A stretch of DNA of 64,000 bases from Patescibacteria group bacterium. GTDB taxonomy: Bacteria > Patescibacteriota > Minisyncoccia > UBA6257 > UBA9933. The notes under the pieces are model-generated. The model searched no databases. It saw only the letters and a program-made list of their open reading frames with translations, and was not told the origin of the DNA. How positions within the stretch are numbered: the stretch's first letter is position 1; the number at the start of each line of letters is the position of its first letter. Below are positions 20,306-28,733 of the stretch, one piece after another. Location of the stretch: NCBI GenBank assembly GCA_038057075.1, contig JBBUDV010000006.1:2216-66215 (forward strand), read 5' to 3'. Both the position numbers and the translations under genes were made by a program.

Positions 20306-20725
20306 CTATTTTACTCCGTGTTCATTAAAAAATGCCGAATACTTTTTATCCGCGACAAGTATGTGTTTTAACAGCCAATTACCGGCATATTCGGCAACTT
20401 CTTCGGATAATTTCTCAATATTTTGATCATCTTTCCTGATTCTGCTTATATAACCATTGGCCATTTCCCTGAACTGGTTATGCGCTTCCACATGAGGAAC
20501 CGCATCTGGATAATCTAATTTATCAAAAAGCTCTTCTTCGGTGCCCAAATGGTAAAACGCGTAATTTCCCATTTGGTTGACAATATCAAATAAAACTTCC
20601 TTTTCTGACGCTTTACTGTTTATAAAATCGGCGATTTTATTTACAATATCCAAAAAATGTCGATGTTGCTCGTCAATCATCTCAATACTCACGCTATAAT
20701 CTTTTGTCCAAATAAATTTTTTCAT
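20306..20725 (-). CDS. Hemerythrin-like (bacteriohemerythrin) protein
   Basis: His/Glu ligands spaced in the HHE pattern (H..HF...H...EE...H...H..D). Confidence 0.7.
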   Translation of the reverse strand: MKKFIWTKDYSVSIEMIDEQHRHFLDIVNKIADFINSKASEKEVLFDIVNQMGNYAFYHLGTEEELFDKLDYPDAVPHVEAHNQFREMANGYISRIRKDDQNIEKLSEEVAEYAGNWLLKHILVADKKYSAFFNEHGVK

Positions 20726-21795
20726 AAGTTGTCCTCTTTGTCTTTGTCGTTGTCAATATCACGAAGTTTTTCTTCCGCTCTGCGAGCCGCCTCTTCAATA
20801 TTTTCTCGCTCTTGTTCTAAACTATCGGCTTCTTTTTCAAATTTTTCTTTCGCTTGTTCTTCTTGTTCTTCTTTCAACTCATTTTCCTCTTCTTTTGCTT
20901 CATTCAAATCCTCAATTGCCTCCCCTACTTTATCCAAACTTTTTTCCGCCTGCTTAGCTAATTGTTTCGCGCCAACATAGTTCTCTTTAGCAAAAAGTTC
21001 TTTAGCTTGCGCAAGAAGCTTGTCAAATTTTTCAAACGCTCCGGCAGGAACACTCGCGCCCTCCTCAACGGCTTCGTCTAATACTTCTTGCCTTTCCTCT
21101 TCAGCTTCTTTTATGGCTTTTTCCGCGTCCTCTTTTTTCTCCATCTCTTTCTCAATCTTTTCTTCTTCCTGTTCTAATGCTTCTTCCTGCTCATCTTCTT
21201 TGAGCTCCAAAAGTTCTTTTTGAGCTTTTATTTCGCCGAGTTCCTTTATCAATGCCTCAACTTGGGCAATATCGTTGGCTCGTCTTGCCTCGCGAATTTT
21301 TGCTTTAAGCTCGTCCTCTTTTGCTTCAAGGGAACGCTTTTGATCTTTAAAGGCCTGTTTGAAAGCTTCTTTGTTCGCGTCAAAATCATCGCTAATGCTT
21401 TTTGCGAGCTCGCTCACATCTTTTCCTTTGGATTTTTCGTCTTCAATAATACCGGCGGCTTTGGCAATGTTTGCCTGAAGCCGAGATTGAGCCACTTCCA
21501 ATCCTTTGGCATTCACGCCTTTCGTTTCCAAAATAATTTTAATTTCAGCGATACGCTCGGCGGCAAAAGTAATTTGAAGACGAGCTTTCCCTTCGGGATT
21601 AAAAGTGAAAAATTCTTGCAACGCTTCTCCGAATCTGTCAAAAAAATAAAACGGGCTTTCCGGAGTTAAACCGGCATTCGGCAATACGGCTTGGTTTTGA
21701 GCAAATCCTTCGACTGGGCTCAAAATAAAAGCTAAAACGGGGACAAACAGGAACGAGATAAAAATAACTTTTATAGTTTTCATATATATCATCAT
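20722..21795 (-). CDS. Secreted DUF5667-like protein with long E/K-rich coiled coil
   Basis: Signal peptide, then a PESPFYFFDRFGEALQEFF-type N-domain, then about 200 aa of charged coiled coil. Confidence 0.5.
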   Translation of the reverse strand: MMIYMKTIKVIFISFLFVPVLAFILSPVEGFAQNQAVLPNAGLTPESPFYFFDRFGEALQEFFTFNPEGKARLQITFAAERIAEIKIILETKGVNAKGLEVAQSRLQANIAKAAGIIEDEKSKGKDVSELAKSISDDFDANKEAFKQAFKDQKRSLEAKEDELKAKIREARRANDIAQVEALIKELGEIKAQKELLELKEDEQEEALEQEEEKIEKEMEKKEDAEKAIKEAEEERQEVLDEAVEEGASVPAGAFEKFDKLLAQAKELFAKENYVGAKQLAKQAEKSLDKVGEAIEDLNEAKEEENELKEEQEEQAKEKFEKEADSLEQERENIEEAARRAEEKLRDIDNDKDKEDNL

Positions 21796-22732: not shown

Positions 22733-23158
22733 CTATTTCAAATTAACTATATAGGTTTTGATAAATTTTTCTATTGCCAATACAGTTTCGGTTTTTAATT
22801 TTGGGTTTGATTCCGCCACCCATTTGGCAAAATTATAAAGTTCTTGATTATCAACTTCCAACCATTTTTTGTTTTTGTGTAAAAAATAAAAAAGTGTCAT
22901 CATGGCAATCCGTTTATTTCCATTTTTAAACGGATGGTTTTTAACCATTAAATAAAATAATACCGACACTTTCCCAATAAATCCTTTATATAACGGCTTG
23001 CCGCCGAAAGTTTGGAATGGCGCGATTAAACAACTTTCTAAAATATTAGGATAACGCGAACTAAAATCAGGAATTGGCTCATCCCATGCCATCATTTCTT
23101 TTGCCAACCAATAAGCGACATATTCAACTTGAATGATTGAAATTATTTTTATTTTCAT
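22733..23158 (-). CDS. Doc/Fic-family toxin, copy 1
   Basis: Doc-type motif HPFKNGNKR. Confidence 0.7.
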   Translation of the reverse strand: MKIKIISIIQVEYVAYWLAKEMMAWDEPIPDFSSRYPNILESCLIAPFQTFGGKPLYKGFIGKVSVLFYLMVKNHPFKNGNKRIAMMTLFYFLHKNKKWLEVDNQELYNFAKWVAESNPKLKTETVLAIEKFIKTYIVNLK

Positions 23159-23338
23159 TATTCTTTTCCTAATAATTTCAAAGTTTCGCCATATTCCTTG
23201 ATGGTTTTTTTAACGGCTTTTTCAATTTCTCGTTTTTTATCTTCAGTTAAAACCTCTCCCAAAACATCCGGCAAATTTTTTTTATTAATCATAAAATTGC
23301 GACCGATTTTTTGGGCCTTAATTTTACCGGACTTGATC
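22755..23338. repeat. Large direct repeat arm 1 (doc + 3' part of the HTH gene)
   Basis: About 584 bp near-identical to 26076-26659; the flanks have diverged. Confidence 0.85.
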
Positions 23339-23412
23339 TTTTTAAACACAGCTACCCGGCTGATACCCAAAAGCTTTGCCACCTCAATTGTGGAAAACAA
23401 TTTTTTATTCAT
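23158..23412 (-). CDS. Excisionase-family HTH DNA-binding protein (putative antitoxin/regulator), copy 1
   Basis: STIEVAKLLGISRVAVFKKIKSGKIKAQKIGRNFMI. Confidence 0.6.
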   Translation of the reverse strand: MNKKLFSTIEVAKLLGISRVAVFKKIKSGKIKAQKIGRNFMINKKNLPDVLGEVLTEDKKREIEKAVKKTIKEYGETLKLLGKE

Positions 23413-23428
23413 ATTTTACAATAATAAT

Positions 23429-23460
23429 CTATGTTAACTGACAAAGCAAGGTTAACATAG
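23429..23460. promoter_or_regulatory. Inverted-repeat operator upstream of HTH-doc copy 1
   Basis: ctatgttaac - N12 - gttaacatag, 17 bp from the HTH start. Confidence 0.4.
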
Positions 23461-23570
23461 CGCTATTAAATGCTTAATTTCAACAATAATATTAATCTAT
23501 TCGCCTATTCACGCTTGCCTTGCCGAAGTTTCAGCACAGGCAGGCAAATTAGACCAATAACAGGCGGCGT

Positions 23571-23903
23571 TTATTTTGAAGATTTGCGCCAACCGGCGGT
23601 CTTGGCTTCCACTTCCGAACAAAACCACTTCTCCCCTTTTGATGTGTTAATAACGGTTCTGTCGTAAAATTGTCCGCCCGGCATATGATAAATTTTCCCG
23701 CCACTGCTTATATTCCCCTTAATAAGGCAGTCCGTGTTTAGAGCTGAATTTTCGCCTGAATTTACAACAGATGGCAATTGGGCCGGCAATTGGGTCGGTT
23801 TGGGCCGCGACCCTACTAAATAAATACCCCCGGCTATAATTACCGCGCCGATAATAATAGCTAAAAATGTTTTATTTTTCTCAAAAAATTCTTTCAAATT
23901 CAT
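23571..23903 (-). CDS. Small secreted/TM-anchored protein with Ada-Zn-binding-like motif lacking most Cys ligands
   Basis: KIYHMPGGQFYDRT...WFCSEVEAKTAGWRKS. Confidence 0.35.
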   Translation of the reverse strand: MNLKEFFEKNKTFLAIIIGAVIIAGGIYLVGSRPKPTQLPAQLPSVVNSGENSALNTDCLIKGNISSGGKIYHMPGGQFYDRTVINTSKGEKWFCSEVEAKTAGWRKSSK

Positions 23904-23961
23904 AAATTTACTTGTAGTGAGTTTATCGAACTATTCTCCTAATTTTTTGCTGGGCAAAACA

Positions 23962-24342
23962 TTATTTTTTTAAAGCAAAGAAACTAATAACTAAAGCAAT
24001 AACGCTCACAATAATGGATAAAATGATAAATAAATTGTGTCTATCATACAAGATAAAACGCCACGCCTTTGTCCAGTAAGAATCAAACTCTTGATGTCCT
24101 CGGGGTGTAAGAATATAAAAAATATCAGGCAATTGGTCTTGTCGTATAACCTTATCTTCTTTCTGCAGCAGATCTAACTGATGTTTAATAATTGTATTAG
24201 ATTCCGCTGGTTGTTTGTTTCTTTCCCAGTAATTCAGTGTTGTTTTATTGACAATGTGTCGCCAAGTGGCGACACCGTTACTAATTTTGATAATTTGCAA
24301 AATCAATTTTTGAAGCTTTTTATCCATAATTTTATTTTTCAA
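23962..24342 (-). CDS. Hypothetical protein with C-terminal TM
   Basis: 126 aa ORF. Confidence 0.3.
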   Translation of the reverse strand: MKNKIMDKKLQKLILQIIKISNGVATWRHIVNKTTLNYWERNKQPAESNTIIKHQLDLLQKEDKVIRQDQLPDIFYILTPRGHQEFDSYWTKAWRFILYDRHNLFIILSIIVSVIALVISFFALKK

Positions 24343-24582
24343 TCATTTTTTGACCTTTTGCTTTTTTAACCATTCCTCCAAAATCTCCTTCGGGTCGCGG
24401 TGGGTTATTTATTCCATTATATCATCAATACCGAAAATTAACCGAAAGTTATCTTTGTGTATATTCTCCCCTATTTCCCGCTTCGGGTCAATTTACCCCC
24501 ACACCAAAAAACACCCTAAAATTTTAAAATAAAAAAGGCGGAAAATCATTTTAGAAATTCCACCCTTGTATTTATTGCTTGA

Positions 24583-24849
24583 CTATTTTTTCCTTCCAAC
24601 CTTAGAAAAAACATCTTTGTATGCCTCTTCAAAAGAAATCCCTGTTCCGACTATTTCGCTGCGTCCGCCAAGAACGTCATGGCTATAAGCTTCCATAAAT
24701 TCATTTAAAATAATTAACCAAAAATAACTCTTATCTTTTTCGGAGTAGGAAATCTTTAATTTAAATCCCATATATTGGGATAAACCGCCTTTTCTTTCCT
24801 CGTTTAAATCCCTTATCAATTGTTCTAATTTTAGCATTTCGGTTTTCAT
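24583..24849 (-). CDS. Hypothetical protein
   Basis: 88 aa ORF. Confidence 0.3.
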   Translation of the reverse strand: MKTEMLKLEQLIRDLNEERKGGLSQYMGFKLKISYSEKDKSYFWLIILNEFMEAYSHDVLGGRSEIVGTGISFEEAYKDVFSKVGRKK

Positions 24850-24989
24850 TTCAGTGCTCCTTTCTGATTTTTATTCCATAATTAGCGAATAATTTTGTTA
24901 ATGTAGCTAAAAATAGAATAACATATTTAAAGCTATTTTGTCAATTACAAAAAGCGCCCTTCTTTAAAAGGCGCTTTGGAGACGTAAAA

Positions 24990-25175
24990 TTACTTTTCAG
25001 GCACAATCATACAGACGATAAAATAAGCAATCAGGCCGGGCGCAATGCCTGTAAAGACAGAAAGAAAAACGTAGCCCACGCGCAAAATCACCGGATCAAC
25101 GCCAAAATACTCCCCAAACCCTCCAATCACTCCGCAAAAAACCTTATTATCCTTGTTTCTATATAAACGTTTCAT
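24990..25175 (-). CDS. PspC-domain small membrane protein
   Basis: MKRLYRNKDNKVFCGVIGGFGEYFGVDPVILRVGYVFL. Confidence 0.6.
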   Translation of the reverse strand: MKRLYRNKDNKVFCGVIGGFGEYFGVDPVILRVGYVFLSVFTGIAPGLIAYFIVCMIVPEK

Positions 25176-25311
25176 AGAGATATTATAACATAAATAATAA
25201 ACTTTACAAAAAACAAAGCCCCGCTTGATTTTGAGCTTTACTATTTATCCATAAATTGTGTATAATGTAATTATATAAAGGTCTAAACTAAATAAATTAA
25301 TAAACAATTTT

Positions 25312-25569
25312 ATGGAACAAAAAGGCAATTCTGCGTTTATGAAGCCGATGAATATCGGCGAGGAGCTGGCGGTAATAGTCGGCAAGGGTCCCATGCCCAG
25401 ATCAGAGGTCGTCAAAAACCTTTGGGTGTATATCAAAAAACACAATCTTCAGGACCCAAAAGATAAGCGGAATATCAACGCTGACGAAAGTTTGAAGAAA
25501 GTATTTGGCGGGAAAGAAGTTGTCAATATGTTTGAAATGACAAAACTTATTTCCAAGCATCTCTCCTAA
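25312..25569 (+). CDS. SWIB/MDM2-domain protein
   Basis: PMPRSEVVKNLWVYIKKHNLQDPKDKRNINADESLKKVFG...MFEMTKLISKHL. Confidence 0.7.
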   Translation: MEQKGNSAFMKPMNIGEELAVIVGKGPMPRSEVVKNLWVYIKKHNLQDPKDKRNINADESLKKVFGGKEVVNMFEMTKLISKHLS

Positions 25570-25582
25570 TAACTTTTAGATA

Positions 25583-25620
25583 AAATAAAACAACCCGCCT
25601 CGGCGGGTTGTTTTATTTTG
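25583..25620. terminator. Bidirectional terminator between convergent SWIB and cspA
   Basis: aaaataaaacaacccgcctcggcgggttgttttatttt. Confidence 0.7.
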
Positions 25621-25649
25621 CTTCGTCTGCAAAAAAACGACAACAATCC

Positions 25650-25847
25650 TTAAATGCGGGTTACGTTTGTTGCGTTTGGTCCTTTGTCAGAGCTGGCTTT
25701 TTCGAAAGATACTTTGTCGCCAACCTTTAGATCTTCAAAGCTTACGCCTTTGAGCTCATTGCCGTGAAAAAATAAATCTTTTTCTTCGCCTTCAACCGTA
25801 ATGAATCCAAATCCTTTATCTGTAAGGGTTTTTATTGTTCCTTCCAT
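25650..25847 (-). CDS. Cold-shock protein (CspA family)
   Basis: KGFGFI RNP-1 and FFHGNEL motifs. Confidence 0.85.
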   Translation of the reverse strand: MEGTIKTLTDKGFGFITVEGEEKDLFFHGNELKGVSFEDLKVGDKVSFEKASSDKGPNATNVTRI

Positions 25848-26056
25848 AGTTATAAAGTTAATTTAATTAATGTTTTAAGGTTTTATCCTAAAGTTTAGTT
25901 TTTTAAAAAACTCGACTAAATTTTATTTAAACAACTATCTTATAAACAATGCTAACATACAAAAACCAAATAGTCAATATAATTCATAAAATACTTTGCT
26001 CCCTCTGTACAACGAAATCCGAACGCATTTTGAAAGCGATTTCATTTGGCATATTT

Positions 26057-26479
26057 TTAAGATTTTACTATGTATGTTTTGATAAATTTTTCTATTGCCA
26101 ATACAGTTTCGGTTTTTAATTTTGGGTTTGATTCCGCCACCCATTTGGCAAAATTATAAAGTTCTTGATTATCAACTTCCAACCATTTTTTGTTTTTGTG
26201 TAAAAAATAAAAAAGTGTCATCATGGCAATCCGTTTATTTCCATTTTTAAACGGATGGTTTTTAACCATTAAATAAAATAATACCGACACTTTCCCAATA
26301 AATCCTTTATATAACGGCTTGCCGCCGAAAGTTTGGAATGGCGCGATTAAACAACTTTCTAAAATATTAGGATAACGCGAACTAAAATCAGGAATTGGCT
26401 CATCCCATGCCATCATTTCTTTTGCCAACCAATAAGCGACATATTCAACTTGAATGATTGAAATTATTTTTATTTTCAT
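26057..26479 (-). CDS. Doc/Fic-family toxin, copy 2
   Basis: Identical over most of its length to copy 1; the C-terminus differs (KTYIVKS). Confidence 0.7.
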   Translation of the reverse strand: MKIKIISIIQVEYVAYWLAKEMMAWDEPIPDFSSRYPNILESCLIAPFQTFGGKPLYKGFIGKVSVLFYLMVKNHPFKNGNKRIAMMTLFYFLHKNKKWLEVDNQELYNFAKWVAESNPKLKTETVLAIEKFIKTYIVKS

Positions 26480-26659
26480 TATTCTTTTCCTAATAATTTC
26501 AAAGTTTCGCCATATTCCTTGATGGTTTTTTTAACGGCTTTTTCAATTTCTCGTTTTTTATCTTCAGTTAAAACCTCTCCCAAAACATCCGGCAAATTTT
26601 TTTTATTAATCATAAAATTGCGACCGATTTTTTGGGCCTTAATTTTACCGGATTTAATA
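26076..26659. repeat. Large direct repeat arm 2
   Basis: Near-identical to 22755-23338, offset 3321 bp. Confidence 0.85.
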
Positions 26660-26736
26660 TTCTTAAATACCGCTACTCGACTAATACCTAACAATTTAGC
26701 GACTTCAATTGTAGATAAAAACTGTTTCCTTATCAT
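26479..26736 (-). CDS. Excisionase-family HTH protein, copy 2
   Basis: N-terminus diverged (MIRKQFLSTIEVAK...); the rest is identical to copy 1. Confidence 0.6.
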   Translation of the reverse strand: MIRKQFLSTIEVAKLLGISRVAVFKNIKSGKIKAQKIGRNFMINKKNLPDVLGEVLTEDKKREIEKAVKKTIKEYGETLKLLGKE

Positions 26737-26752
26737 ATTACCAATATAATTT

Positions 26753-26781
26753 ATGTTAACCTATGAGTCAATGGTTAACAT
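26753..26781. promoter_or_regulatory. Inverted-repeat operator upstream of HTH-doc copy 2
   Basis: atgttaacc - N11 - ggttaacat. Confidence 0.4.
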
Positions 26782-26910
26782 AAGTTAACAAAAAACAGAG
26801 GCATTAACCTCTGTTCGTACACACTGGCTCCGCATCGTGGACGACGTTAGAACTATTTTTGAGAAACAAAATGAGTATATTTATATACTTATTTTAAAAT
26901 AAAAAACCAG

Positions 26911-28212
26911 TTATTTTAAAAATTTAAATGATACGATAATTTGATCGAGAACATTCCCATAATCCTTTTTAGAACCCATGCCTATTAATATTTTATTCTG
27001 CCCAAATGGTAAAATAATTGCATCTGATATTAGATCACCAAATTCATATCTATATCTGATCCCTGGTACACCGGCAATAATCACAGTGGAAGTTGTTCTT
27101 CCAGCCCCAAGAAAAGATTTATCTGAAAATTCCAGAGAAACAACATCGATAACAAATGGATAACTATAATTGTTTTTATTTATAATAGGCCCAACTACAA
27201 GCTCAAACCTAACATCAGACCCTATCCCGCGAGATTTTTCTAAAACAATCCAATCTCTGGGATATTTGAACTCAAAACCATATTTATCATTTTTATAAGT
27301 TAGCCAGGTTAGAGCGGAGTATTGGATTGCTGCTTGATAATTCAAACAATACCAATTCGTATATGCCGCGTCAGCACCACAATTAAATGCTGATATTTGA
27401 GCATCATTGGTACAATTATAACCATAGGTATCGCCATGATAAGAATCTTTTAGAATTGAACTGGTATTAGTAGAAAGGCGAGATCCTAAAATATAACTTT
27501 GTTTATTGTCACTTAGACAATAAACATAACTTTCTCCCAATTTCGGATCACTAGGCATATTAAAATTATTTAAATTTAAATTATTAAATTTTGATTGCAA
27601 ATCACTCCATTTTTCAGCATCTGGATAAGCACTATTATTTACTTTATACATAACTTCTAAATTACTCTGAATTTTTTGCAAATCAGAAATTTTTCTTGAA
27701 TCATAAGCAACAACATATTTATTACTCCTAATAAAAAAAGAAACTCCAAAAATTAGCGCAATAAATGATATACCTAAAGTTATGAATATTAATACTTTGT
27801 ACGTCCAAATTCGATTTTTTAGAATAAAATATATAATCCATATCAAAATCAATGATATTAAAGAAAAAATGAGTGTATATAAGATTATTTGACCGCACCT
27901 TAAATCCTCAGGCACACATAAGCTCGATAAAGAAAATACTATCCCTATAGAATAAAAAAATGAAAATATAATCGCGGTGCTCAAAAGAGCAGTAATTTTC
28001 TTTTGCCGCAATATCATAAAGGAAAAACTGCTAAATAAAATCAGTCCAATTCCGCCCCAAAATAAAAGATTTGTATAGGGATCTGATGGAAAATTAAGGG
28101 CAAAATTTGCCACGCCGGGAATAAATAGAAGTAAAAATGGAAATATTGGTGCAAATGGCAATGCAATTATAAGAGAAAGAATAATCTTCTCGATAAGCTC
28201 TTTTTTAGTCAT
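26911..28212 (-). CDS. Polytopic membrane protein with large extracytoplasmic C-terminal domain
   Basis: 433 aa: about 6 N-terminal TM segments followed by a Cys/Tyr/Asn-rich domain. Confidence 0.4.
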   Translation of the reverse strand: MTKKELIEKIILSLIIALPFAPIFPFLLLFIPGVANFALNFPSDPYTNLLFWGGIGLILFSSFSFMILRQKKITALLSTAIIFSFFYSIGIVFSLSSLCVPEDLRCGQIILYTLIFSLISLILIWIIYFILKNRIWTYKVLIFITLGISFIALIFGVSFFIRSNKYVVAYDSRKISDLQKIQSNLEVMYKVNNSAYPDAEKWSDLQSKFNNLNLNNFNMPSDPKLGESYVYCLSDNKQSYILGSRLSTNTSSILKDSYHGDTYGYNCTNDAQISAFNCGADAAYTNWYCLNYQAAIQYSALTWLTYKNDKYGFEFKYPRDWIVLEKSRGIGSDVRFELVVGPIINKNNYSYPFVIDVVSLEFSDKSFLGAGRTTSTVIIAGVPGIRYRYEFGDLISDAIILPFGQNKILIGMGSKKDYGNVLDQIIVSFKFLK

Positions 28213-28335: not shown

Positions 28336-28638
28336 CTAAAGTTTCGGAATACCATTTTCCCCTCTAGAAGAATCTTTCTTTAAAACTTCAGAATTTAATA
28401 ATCGTTTATAGGCAAAAGCTTTTCCTGAACCTGTTTTTAAATATCGCTCAAAATCCTTTGCTAATTTTTGATTCTCAAAAGCGCTATAAAATACTAAATT
28501 CCAAGGTCTATATGGCGAAGTAGATTTTACCAAACCTTTATTATGCTCCAAAAATCTTTTCCGCAAATCTTCAGTATATCCAAAATAAAAATTTTTGGAT
28601 TTTGAGCTCCATAAAATATATGTATAGTGCATAGCCAT
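28336..28638 (-). CDS. GIY-YIG nuclease-domain protein (UPF0213-like)
   Basis: YTYILWSSKSKNFYFGYTEDLRKRFLEHN. Confidence 0.7.
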   Translation of the reverse strand: MAMHYTYILWSSKSKNFYFGYTEDLRKRFLEHNKGLVKSTSPYRPWNLVFYSAFENQKLAKDFERYLKTGSGKAFAYKRLLNSEVLKKDSSRGENGIPKL

Positions 28639-28658
28639 TCTGAAGCTTTAGCGAAAGA

Positions 28659-28733
28659 TGGCTCCGCAGGTAGGATTCGAACCTACGACCAACCGCTTAA
28701 CAGGCGGCCGCTCTACCACTGAGCTACTGCGGA
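28659..28733 (-). tRNA. tRNA-Asn (GTT)
   Basis: Cloverleaf TCCGCAG/CTGCGGA, anticodon loop CTGTTAA, T-loop TTCGAAT, encoded CCA. Confidence 0.85.

Follow-up and report, generated by a model that had tools for sequence, protein, structure and literature searches.

Two HTH_17-Doc toxin-antitoxin-like modules in a groundwater Patescibacteria genome and a probable record of recurrent gene conversion between them

The window, a 64-kb stretch of contig JBBUDV010000006.1, contains two copies of a two-gene module, A (22733-23412) and B (26057-26736), which lie 3.3 kb apart in direct orientation on the minus strand. In each module the gene of a small helix-turn-helix (HTH) protein, a candidate antitoxin, is followed by doc, the gene of a Doc-family toxin, and the HTH stop and doc start codons overlap by 1 nt (TAATG). 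The open reading frame (ORF) list confirms both gene pairs, which had been placed at the same positions in a preliminary description of this DNA. Here we describe these toxin-antitoxin (TA)-like modules, the long identical block shared by them and its probable origin by gene conversion (Table 1).

Over 10 kb, the window is identical to an 88,985-bp contig (L001) from Hainich groundwater (well H41, 0.1 µm filter), and its proteins are named 'Patescibacteria group bacterium' at NCBI. The host is a Patescibacteria (candidate phyla radiation; CPR) genome from this groundwater. Both modules are spanned, in the same order, by three independent Hainich groundwater assemblies (L001, L002 and L003), which come from different filters and replicates.

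Table 1. Coordinates of the modules, their control elements, the identical tract and the genes between the modules
Feature	Position	Strand	Remarks
Doc-A	22733-23158	-	141 aa; Doc-family toxin (ORF list, profile matches)
HTH-A	23158-23412	-	84 aa; antitoxin candidate; codons 1-27 native to A, rest probably overwritten by B
Doc-B	26057-26479	-	140 aa; Doc-family toxin; motif H75-P-F-K-N-G-N-K-R83
HTH-B	26479-26736	-	85 aa; antitoxin candidate; winged HTH at about residues 6-44, C-terminal helices 45-55 and 58-82
Recipient copy of the conversion tract	22755-23331		577 bp; HTH-A codons 28-84 and Doc-A codons 1-134
Donor copy of the conversion tract	26076-26652		native to the B lineage
Polymorphic 3' tract end in copy A	22755-22861		22755 in the window, 22782 in the common allele, ~22862 in H51
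Module A promoter and candidate operator	23421-23457	-	inverted repeat TGTTAAC-N12-GTTAACA at 23432-23457
Module B promoter and candidate operator	26743-26780	-	inverted repeat TGTTAAC-N13-GTTAACA at 26754-26780
Terminator-like hairpin	26793-26816	-	directly upstream of module B
Sunset-domain protein	23571-23903	-	GC 0.42
Hypothetical protein	23962-24342	-	GC 0.31
Hypothetical protein	24583-24849	-	GC 0.33
PspC	24990-25175	-	GC 0.42
SWIB	25312-25569	+	GC 0.42
Cold-shock protein (CSD)	25650-25847	-	GC 0.39

The two tract copies in Table 1 are identical over 577 bp without any mismatch, at an offset of 3321 nt (repeat finder, pairwise alignment and base-by-base comparison). Near-identical direct repeats of about 584 bp had been described before; the long direct repeats are there, but the exact run is 577 bp and the remaining 7 nt already include mismatches. 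There are 76 differences in about 740 aligned positions, and the probability that all of them would miss a given 577-nt block by chance is about 1e-50. At the protein level, Doc-A and Doc-B are the same except for their last residues (NLK* vs KS*), and the last seven doc codons differ mostly silently. At the other end, 15 of HTH codons 7-27 are changed between A and B, 14 of them silently and one as K25N, and the third-position identity in HTH codons 8-28 is only 0.24. Such purifying selection on codons 7-27 argues for a full-length HTH-A ORF. Gene callers shorten HTH-A: it is called as 70 aa from an internal TTG in several public assemblies, by which helix 1 of the HTH is lost, and the exact 84-aa product is 'not on record'.

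An interior with 0/577 differences between saturated flanks indicates gene conversion between old paralogs. In the preliminary description, recent duplication and gene conversion had been offered as alternatives. Recent duplication does not fit the saturated synonymous sites at the module ends (0.24) or the 5' end of A, which is nearer to a module of another lineage than to B. Gene conversion is borne out by the identical block in diverged homologs, the incongruence between block and flanks, and related strains with less-converted copies (L002-type and L132), which are described below.

In order to find the direction of the transfer, we compared both modules with a sister module, C, which is found in a different context on short contigs (L107-L112) from wells H51 and H52 and other runs. 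Identity between B and C is even along the module (0.86 in HTH codons 8-28, 0.89 in HTH codons 29-85 and 0.91 in Doc codons 3-134), and it is 0.91 in the operator region. The corresponding values for A and C are 0.68, 0.89 and 0.91, with a third-position identity of 0.14 in HTH codons 8-28. Three control pairs gave 0.94/0.93/0.91, 0.92/0.95/0.92 and 0.87/0.82/0.90 across the same segments. In a baseline of 51 modules (1176 pairs), first-segment identity tracks the rest of the module without recombination (mean departure +0.02, sd 0.06), and A-B (-0.27) and A-C (-0.22) are the two most extreme of all pairs. The first ~70 nt of A are nearest to a Wolfebacteria module (L014; 0.84-0.87), while the rest of A is only ~0.6-0.7 identical to it; the 5' end of A is 0.84 identical to this module vs 0.73 to B. 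As B is uniformly C-like at about 0.9 and A is C-like only in the block, the block belongs to the B/C lineage, and the mosaic is module A. The donor of the conversion is B and its recipient is A. Module C was also considered as the ancestral single-copy locus and rejected, for the likeness of its downstream flank to that of A is spurious; the gene downstream of C is a DNA methyltransferase-like ORF.

Differences between strains show that the 3' end of the tract is polymorphic. L002 and L003 differ from L001 at only six positions in 10 kb, all of which are located at 22763-22781 inside doc-A, where they read GTT CAA GCG…TTC (Doc-A L127Q) and B has GTA TTG GCA…TTT. This shorter-tract allele, with identity to 22782 (550 bp), is found in 10 of 11 typed contigs (wells H41, H43 and H51; three other runs), and among the contigs typed the 577-bp version is confined to the H41 0.1 µm assembly, which has a high coverage. 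In well H51 there is a strain (L132) whose flank matches the window at 98.8% identity over 5.7 kb and whose copy A still has nine more A-native differences, at 22802-22861; the contigs that cover the B side in H51 and H52 end exactly at the equivalent position, 26183. The H51 strain thus has 15 A-native differences in 107 unconverted nt; over this stretch it matches B at 86%, the longest identical run being 35 nt. In its module B tract we found a single SNP, in HTH-B codon 44 (N44D), which is the sole difference in 2.1 kb (L105, L106). All three endpoints are nested, each making A more B-like, and their presence in close strains indicates that conversion was repeated and recent. The 5' edge appears constant. 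An H43 contig (L143) stops about 54 nt beyond the codon 27/28 edge, consistent with the same 5' boundary, and this edge would be fixed because the cassettes were ~86% identical before conversion while the 5' segments were only ~70-73% identical.

The toxin belongs to a known family. Doc-B scores 35.9 bits against PF02661 (Fic/DOC; cut-off 24) and 46.5 bits against TIGR01550 (DOC_P1; cut-off 38.65), and it matches a PHROG 'Doc-like toxin' family with an E-value of 1.8e-16. The H, P, F, N, G, N, K and R of its motif are invariant in 20 family members, and the motif is followed by I-A-M without a second Arg. The Doc-type motif is HxFx(D/N)(A/G)NKR, whereas AMPylating Fic proteins have HxFx(D/E)GNGRxxR; judged by its motif, the window toxin is of the Doc type, not of the AMPylating Fic type. 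In PDB, 9vzc ('Death-on-curing family protein') is the best relative, with an E-value of 3.4e-7 for the family profile. Doc-B also matches the C-terminal ~100 residues of two PADLOC candidates, PDC-S23 (E 3e-18) and PDC-S05, which are single-gene defence candidates of about 300 aa with an extra N-terminal region. A defence system at the window's Doc was rejected, as these are domain-level matches only and give no evidence for such a system here.

The HTH proteins match HTH_17 (PF12728) and TIGR01764 ('excise') above the cut-offs. In the AlphaFold model of HTH-B (predicted local distance difference test, pLDDT, 80), a winged HTH is followed by two C-terminal helices, and BldC, RacA, Pukovnik Xis and RdfS can be superposed on its N-terminal ~49 residues with 1.3-1.9 Å (1.3-1.6 Å over ~48 residues for Pukovnik Xis and RdfS). 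No Phd/YefM fold or domain was found in the HTH protein: HTH_17 and 'excise' are the only matches, and the model resembles BldC, RacA and Xis instead. The protein is conserved over its whole length, and the C-terminal EYGETLKLLGKE is almost invariant. By analogy with Phd and with the tested 'Phd-C' element of the PanA antitoxin, we infer that the two C-terminal helices neutralise Doc.

Relatives of the window's Doc are abundant, with more than 4200 protein clusters at E ≤ 1e-5, and they occur in 578 or more species-level genomes. Among the top 120, identity is 70-92%, and they come from Giovannoni-, Moran-, Wolfe-, Yanofsky-, Lipton- and Kerfeldbacteria. Gene pairing was summarized for the best 80 loci, and operators for the 78 loci with an HTH partner. 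In 78 of the 80 loci, the gene immediately before doc encodes an HTH homolog, with a gap of -10 to +7 nt; the two exceptions are a doc at a contig edge (L072) and a partial doc match (L036). Together with the Doc models above their cut-offs and the invariant motif, this agrees with the earlier description of the gene pairs as TA-like modules. The same description regarded the pairing of Doc with an Xis-like HTH as uncommon, which is contradicted by these numbers: the HTH_17-Doc pairing is the rule for a very large family centred on Patescibacteria. In a full-text literature search, no paper was found that describes the HTH_17-Doc pair or the family in Patescibacteria, and the public annotation of the antitoxin is only 'helix-turn-helix' or 'excisionase family'. 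The toxin is thus of a known family, and the antitoxin architecture is apparently an undescribed variant.

The other genes of the window are almost absent from the 80 loci (one sunset match and one Csp match), and no second doc is found within ±6 kb in any of them (0 of 80). Few shared neighbours and no second doc indicate that the module moves alone and that the paired arrangement is particular to the window lineage.

Each module had been proposed to have its own inverted-repeat operator, and GTTAAC repeats are indeed found upstream of both HTH genes. The arrangement TGTTAAC-N9-15-GTTAACA occurs twice in the window, once upstream of each HTH gene, with 0.01 occurrences expected. In module B, the half-sites bracket the -35 box TTGACT, which is followed after a 17-nt spacer by the -10 box TATATT, ending 6 nt before the ATG. 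In module A, the -10 box TATTAT (23421-23426) ends 8 nt before the ATG, and the -35 box TTGCTT (23444-23449) is degenerate and under the promoter-scan threshold; this promoter was read by sequence inspection. Within the family, the 80 nt before the HTH start contain GTTAAC at 28/kb, an 80-fold enrichment over the background of 0.35/kb, and a perfect 7-nt inverted repeat is present upstream in 63 of 78 loci, vs 6.3 expected in random windows.

The operator type also covaries with residue 24 of the HTH protein, which is located in its second helix. GTTAAC is found in 66 of 73 loci with F or Y at this residue, and it is absent in all five loci with L or A, where another palindrome (GATAAC/GTTATC, GACAAC/GTTGTC or GTCAAG/CTTGAC) is found instead (Fisher p = 3.8e-5; the grouping of F with Y was chosen after the data had been seen). 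A comparison of F with non-F is not significant (p = 0.06). The pairing of residue 24 and operator has switched independently at least three times. Taken across the family, there is good comparative evidence for the inverted repeat as the candidate operator read by the HTH protein. As for the hairpin upstream of module B, a hairpin with the same stem (ACAGAG/CTCTGT) and a different loop lies upstream of module C (L107 ~270-295) in an unrelated context, and the mobile unit may carry its own upstream insulator terminator.

Considering all the above, we regard it as probable (about 0.8) that modules A and B are old paralogs, both of them copies of a Patescibacteria HTH_17-Doc TA module that is widespread, and that the neutraliser-plus-toxin cassette was recurrently converted from B to A. 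In the mechanism that we propose, the N-terminal MerR/Xis-type winged HTH of the antitoxin would bind the GTTAAC-type inverted repeat, which straddles the -35 box of the module's own promoter, and would repress the operon, while the two C-terminal helices would bind and block the toxin. The translationally coupled toxin, a putative Doc-family kinase, would phosphorylate EF-Tu and stop translation. The 5' segments of the two old copies (operator and HTH codons 1-27) would be of different lineages, about 70% identical, and the cassettes, already ~86% identical, would have offered enough homology for RecA-type recombination. Non-reciprocal homologous recombination would then have copied the cassette of B into A, with the 5' edge of the tract pinned at HTH codon 27/28, where homology drops sharply, and the 3' edge moving outward stepwise, from ~22862 to 22782 and then to 22755.

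Several points weigh against this reading. The strains are metagenome consensus sequences, and phasing across a repeat of 550-577 bp depends on the assembler; the tract length in H51 was taken from contig ends, without a contig spanning both copies. The Doc model has a pLDDT of 42 (shallow alignment), so that the Doc fold is predicted from sequence models only, and the C-terminal helices of the antitoxin have no detectable sequence similarity to any solved antitoxin. With its degenerate -35 box, module A may be poorly expressed. In the family, 47 of 78 loci have a -10-like box at a distance of 3-11 nt from the ATG, and Shine-Dalgarno-like motifs are found in 7 of 78, which suggests, with moderate support, that the antitoxin mRNA is leaderless.

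A recent duplication of one module or of the whole 3.3-kb unit, in which the ends alone have diverged since, would account for the identical interiors and the direct orientation of the copies. We consider it very improbable, as no clock yields saturated ends beside a 0/577 interior, the 5' end of A resembles modules of other lineages more than it resembles B, related strains contain less-converted A copies and nothing else of the 3.3-kb unit is duplicated. Somewhat less improbable, and still poorly fitting, is the idea that an external donor supplied the same cassette to both copies independently, through horizontal transfer with homologous replacement, without any intragenomic conversion. Mobility of the family is clear, as the 80 loci share no synteny, and mosaic modules elsewhere break near the same codon (module D in L088). 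However, B shows no sign of replacement in its uniform identity to C, the nested endpoints always turn A more B-like, and a donor in the same genome, 3.3 kb away, is the simpler source.

Very little credence is due to an assembly artefact, in which diverged paralogs were collapsed or cross-threaded into a false identical block. The repeat does exceed the short-read length, many contigs break at its edges and one contig (L120, see below) could be a chimera. Yet contigs ending at the repeat edges are just what is expected of a true exact repeat, and their break points are the identity boundaries plus a k-mer-sized overlap; moreover, the three independent assemblies give the same two-module order, and De Bruijn assemblers do not homogenise diverged paralogs. 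It is just as hard to believe that the HTH proteins serve as genuine excisionases and that the segment is a mobile islet, excisable or composite, with the repeats at its borders, although they have the HTH_17/'excise' domain and an Xis-like fold, a tRNA-Asn lies 1.9 kb away, and GC is low in the TA modules and in several genes nearby. No integrase or transposase was found within ±10 kb, and no att-like repeat of any part of the tRNA-Asn elsewhere in the window. The conserved partner of the HTH gene is doc, in 78 of 80 loci of unrelated context; four of the six cargo genes have backbone GC; and the 'repeat' lies inside the modules and does not mark the borders of an element. The excisionase-type winged-helix domain is thus present without the association with an integrase and attachment site, and the HTH proteins are not acting as excisionases.

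Direct repeats of 550-577 bp could drive deletion of the 2.7-kb segment between them. A contig of 856 bp at 3x coverage (L120; well H43, 0.2 µm filter) has the terminator-like hairpin, candidate operator and HTH-B 5' end of module B on one side of the shared block and, on the other, a doc 3' end of A type and the first part of the M23 peptidase gene, which is exactly the predicted deletion junction. Compared with the dominant strain, its M23 flank is slightly different, with 1 nt inserted and one or more substitutions (MKKIAGF to MKKMAGF). In H43 the middle segment (L143) has a coverage of 20 and the flanks 18-20, which indicates that the dominant haplotype has both modules, and no reciprocal junction was seen among the contigs. 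It is possible, though we would not favour it, that this contig represents a minor real haplotype and not a low-coverage chimera. The earlier statement that the repeats can mediate deletion or amplification therefore has the predicted junction on its side, and against it the facts that this is one 3x contig, possibly a chimera, and that the middle segment in H43 is at flank coverage.

The closest foreign module (module D; L088 9747-10423), with a Doc 92% identical, is a single module in an unrelated context and is also a mosaic relative to B and C. Identity is 0.64-0.76 in the first ~45-60 nt of its aligned HTH region and no lower than 0.84 in the rest, and the breakpoint lies close to the HTH codon at which module A breaks. 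Mosaics A and D break at about the same place, and the three nested events share one 5' edge, which hints that the module evolves as two recombination units meeting near HTH codon 27/28, one being the operator and recognition-helix 'address' and the other the neutraliser-plus-toxin cassette; we put this forward as a speculative idea that is unlikely to hold in full. If it were true, a cassette swap would move both interacting surfaces and never produce a mismatched lethal toxin/antitoxin pair. Resident paralogs could then collapse to one immunity group, a route for TA turnover and conflict resolution in streamlined genomes.

Among the genes between the modules, the earlier calls of PspC, SWIB and a cold-shock domain agree with profile matches. 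The protein previously called 'Ada-Zn-like' has to be renamed: it matches the 'sunset domain' (NF051437, E 2.7e-13), with no Ada-type match at E ≤ 0.01 in Pfam and NCBIfam. It is a protein of 110 aa with an N-terminal hydrophobic segment and the 'sunset domain' at its C-terminus, a domain that is also found in NCBIfam as an extension on ribosomal proteins L17, L20 and L4. The first hypothetical protein in Table 1 (126 aa) has a hydrophobic C-terminal tail and is 126, 124 or 121 aa long between assemblies of the same population. The free-standing SWIB/MDM2-domain protein (85 aa) is encoded by the segment's only plus-strand gene. SWIB genes have been reported as enriched among horizontally transferred genes in groundwater Patescibacteria (PMC12455944); despite this report, the window's copy has backbone GC.

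The term 'accessory islet', which had been used for the segment, holds in part. The backbone genes for the M23 peptidase and the DUF5667 protein have a GC of 0.41-0.42, and a GC of 0.30-0.33 is found in both TA modules, the two hypotheticals, a 433-aa orphan and a GIY-YIG ORF. The TA modules and the two hypotheticals are low in GC as an islet would be, whereas sunset, PspC, SWIB and Csp genes are at backbone GC and mobility genes are missing. This split GC, with no mobility genes, points to a patchwork of native small genes and low-GC insertions, not to a discrete mobile islet. A comparison of synteny in relatives had also been recommended. We looked at the flanks of homologs: the 433-aa flanking gene (26911-28212) has no homolog outside the Hainich population among 5.8 billion protein clusters, and relatives of the M23 peptidase (51-57% identity) carry none of the window's neighbouring genes. 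With flank homologs that share no neighbours, synteny cannot decide whether the islet is accessory.

Further features lie on the minus strand outside the modules. The 433-aa protein is strongly hydrophobic in its N-terminal half by eye. The region 28336-28733 contains a free-standing 100-aa ORF with a GIY-YIG nuclease domain (PF01541, E 8e-16; GC 0.30), 20 nt from the tRNA-Asn gene (28659-28733). This tRNA was considered as an integration site and rejected, as no partial repeat of it exists in the window. At 20722-21795, the DUF5667 protein has a long Glu/Lys-rich repetitive C-terminal half, and its length, 357 or 353 aa, varies with the assembly within one population.

The view that reduced genomes are largely without TA systems is found again in a study of groundwater Patescibacteria (PMC12455944). 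If the present reading holds, CPR genomes may contain more TA systems than assumed for streamlined genomes, including an abundant and highly conserved family with an antitoxin type that was not found in the TA surveys searched. The pairing of F/Y24 with GTTAAC, and of L24 with GATAAC or GACAAC, would be a testable DNA-recognition code. Likewise, the nested tract endpoints within one natural population would clearly document that TA paralogs of an uncultivated organism were converted repeatedly.

Generally, the modules resemble Phd-Doc of phage P1 and the chromosomal Phd/Doc systems. Both have a small Doc-type Fic-fold toxin with the motif HxFx(D/N)(A/G)NKR, an upstream and translationally coupled antitoxin gene, an operator overlapping the promoter, and a modular antitoxin with a DNA-binding N-terminus and a helical C-terminal element; for the window, the Fic fold, the operator and the DNA binding are predictions. 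Unlike Phd, the antitoxin of the window is predicted to be a MerR/Xis-type winged HTH (HTH_17) in place of the Phd/YefM fold, with no detectable Phd similarity; the toxin is distant from solved Doc proteins, as the E-value of its best profile match shows, and the family is centred on Patescibacteria.

Other partners of Doc are known, such as AbrB/MazE (TasA-TasB), Xre and YhfG-Fic (Makarova et al. 2009, PMC2701414); the same survey has a truncated MerR-like HTH only as a predicted partner of PIN toxins. PanA, with a non-Phd antitoxin domain and a helical C-terminal 'Phd-C' element, neutralises Doc (Ernits et al. 2023, PMC10440598). The window family is like the AbrB/MazE-, Xre-, YhfG- and PanA-Doc systems in its 'mix and match' organisation, in which one toxin family is combined with different DNA-binding or accessory domains carrying a short neutralising element, while HTH_17 is absent from the Doc partners in both surveys.

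Gene conversion between paralogs has been described in Mycobacterium tuberculosis for the TA loci vapBC25 and vapBC31, and also for PE/PPE and esx loci, with a median tract of 101 bp (PMC13061034). In M. tuberculosis as in the window, one dispersed paralog is copied non-reciprocally into another, a sharp identical block lies in diverged homologs and the tract ends vary between strains. The window differs in its longer tract of 470-577 bp, in its source (metagenome assemblies of an uncultivated CPR population), and in that the predicted neutralising domain and the toxin are converted together. Current ideas are not overturned, since the mix and match of TA domains and the conversion of paralogs are both established; the conversion seen here is a known process that is unusually well recorded.

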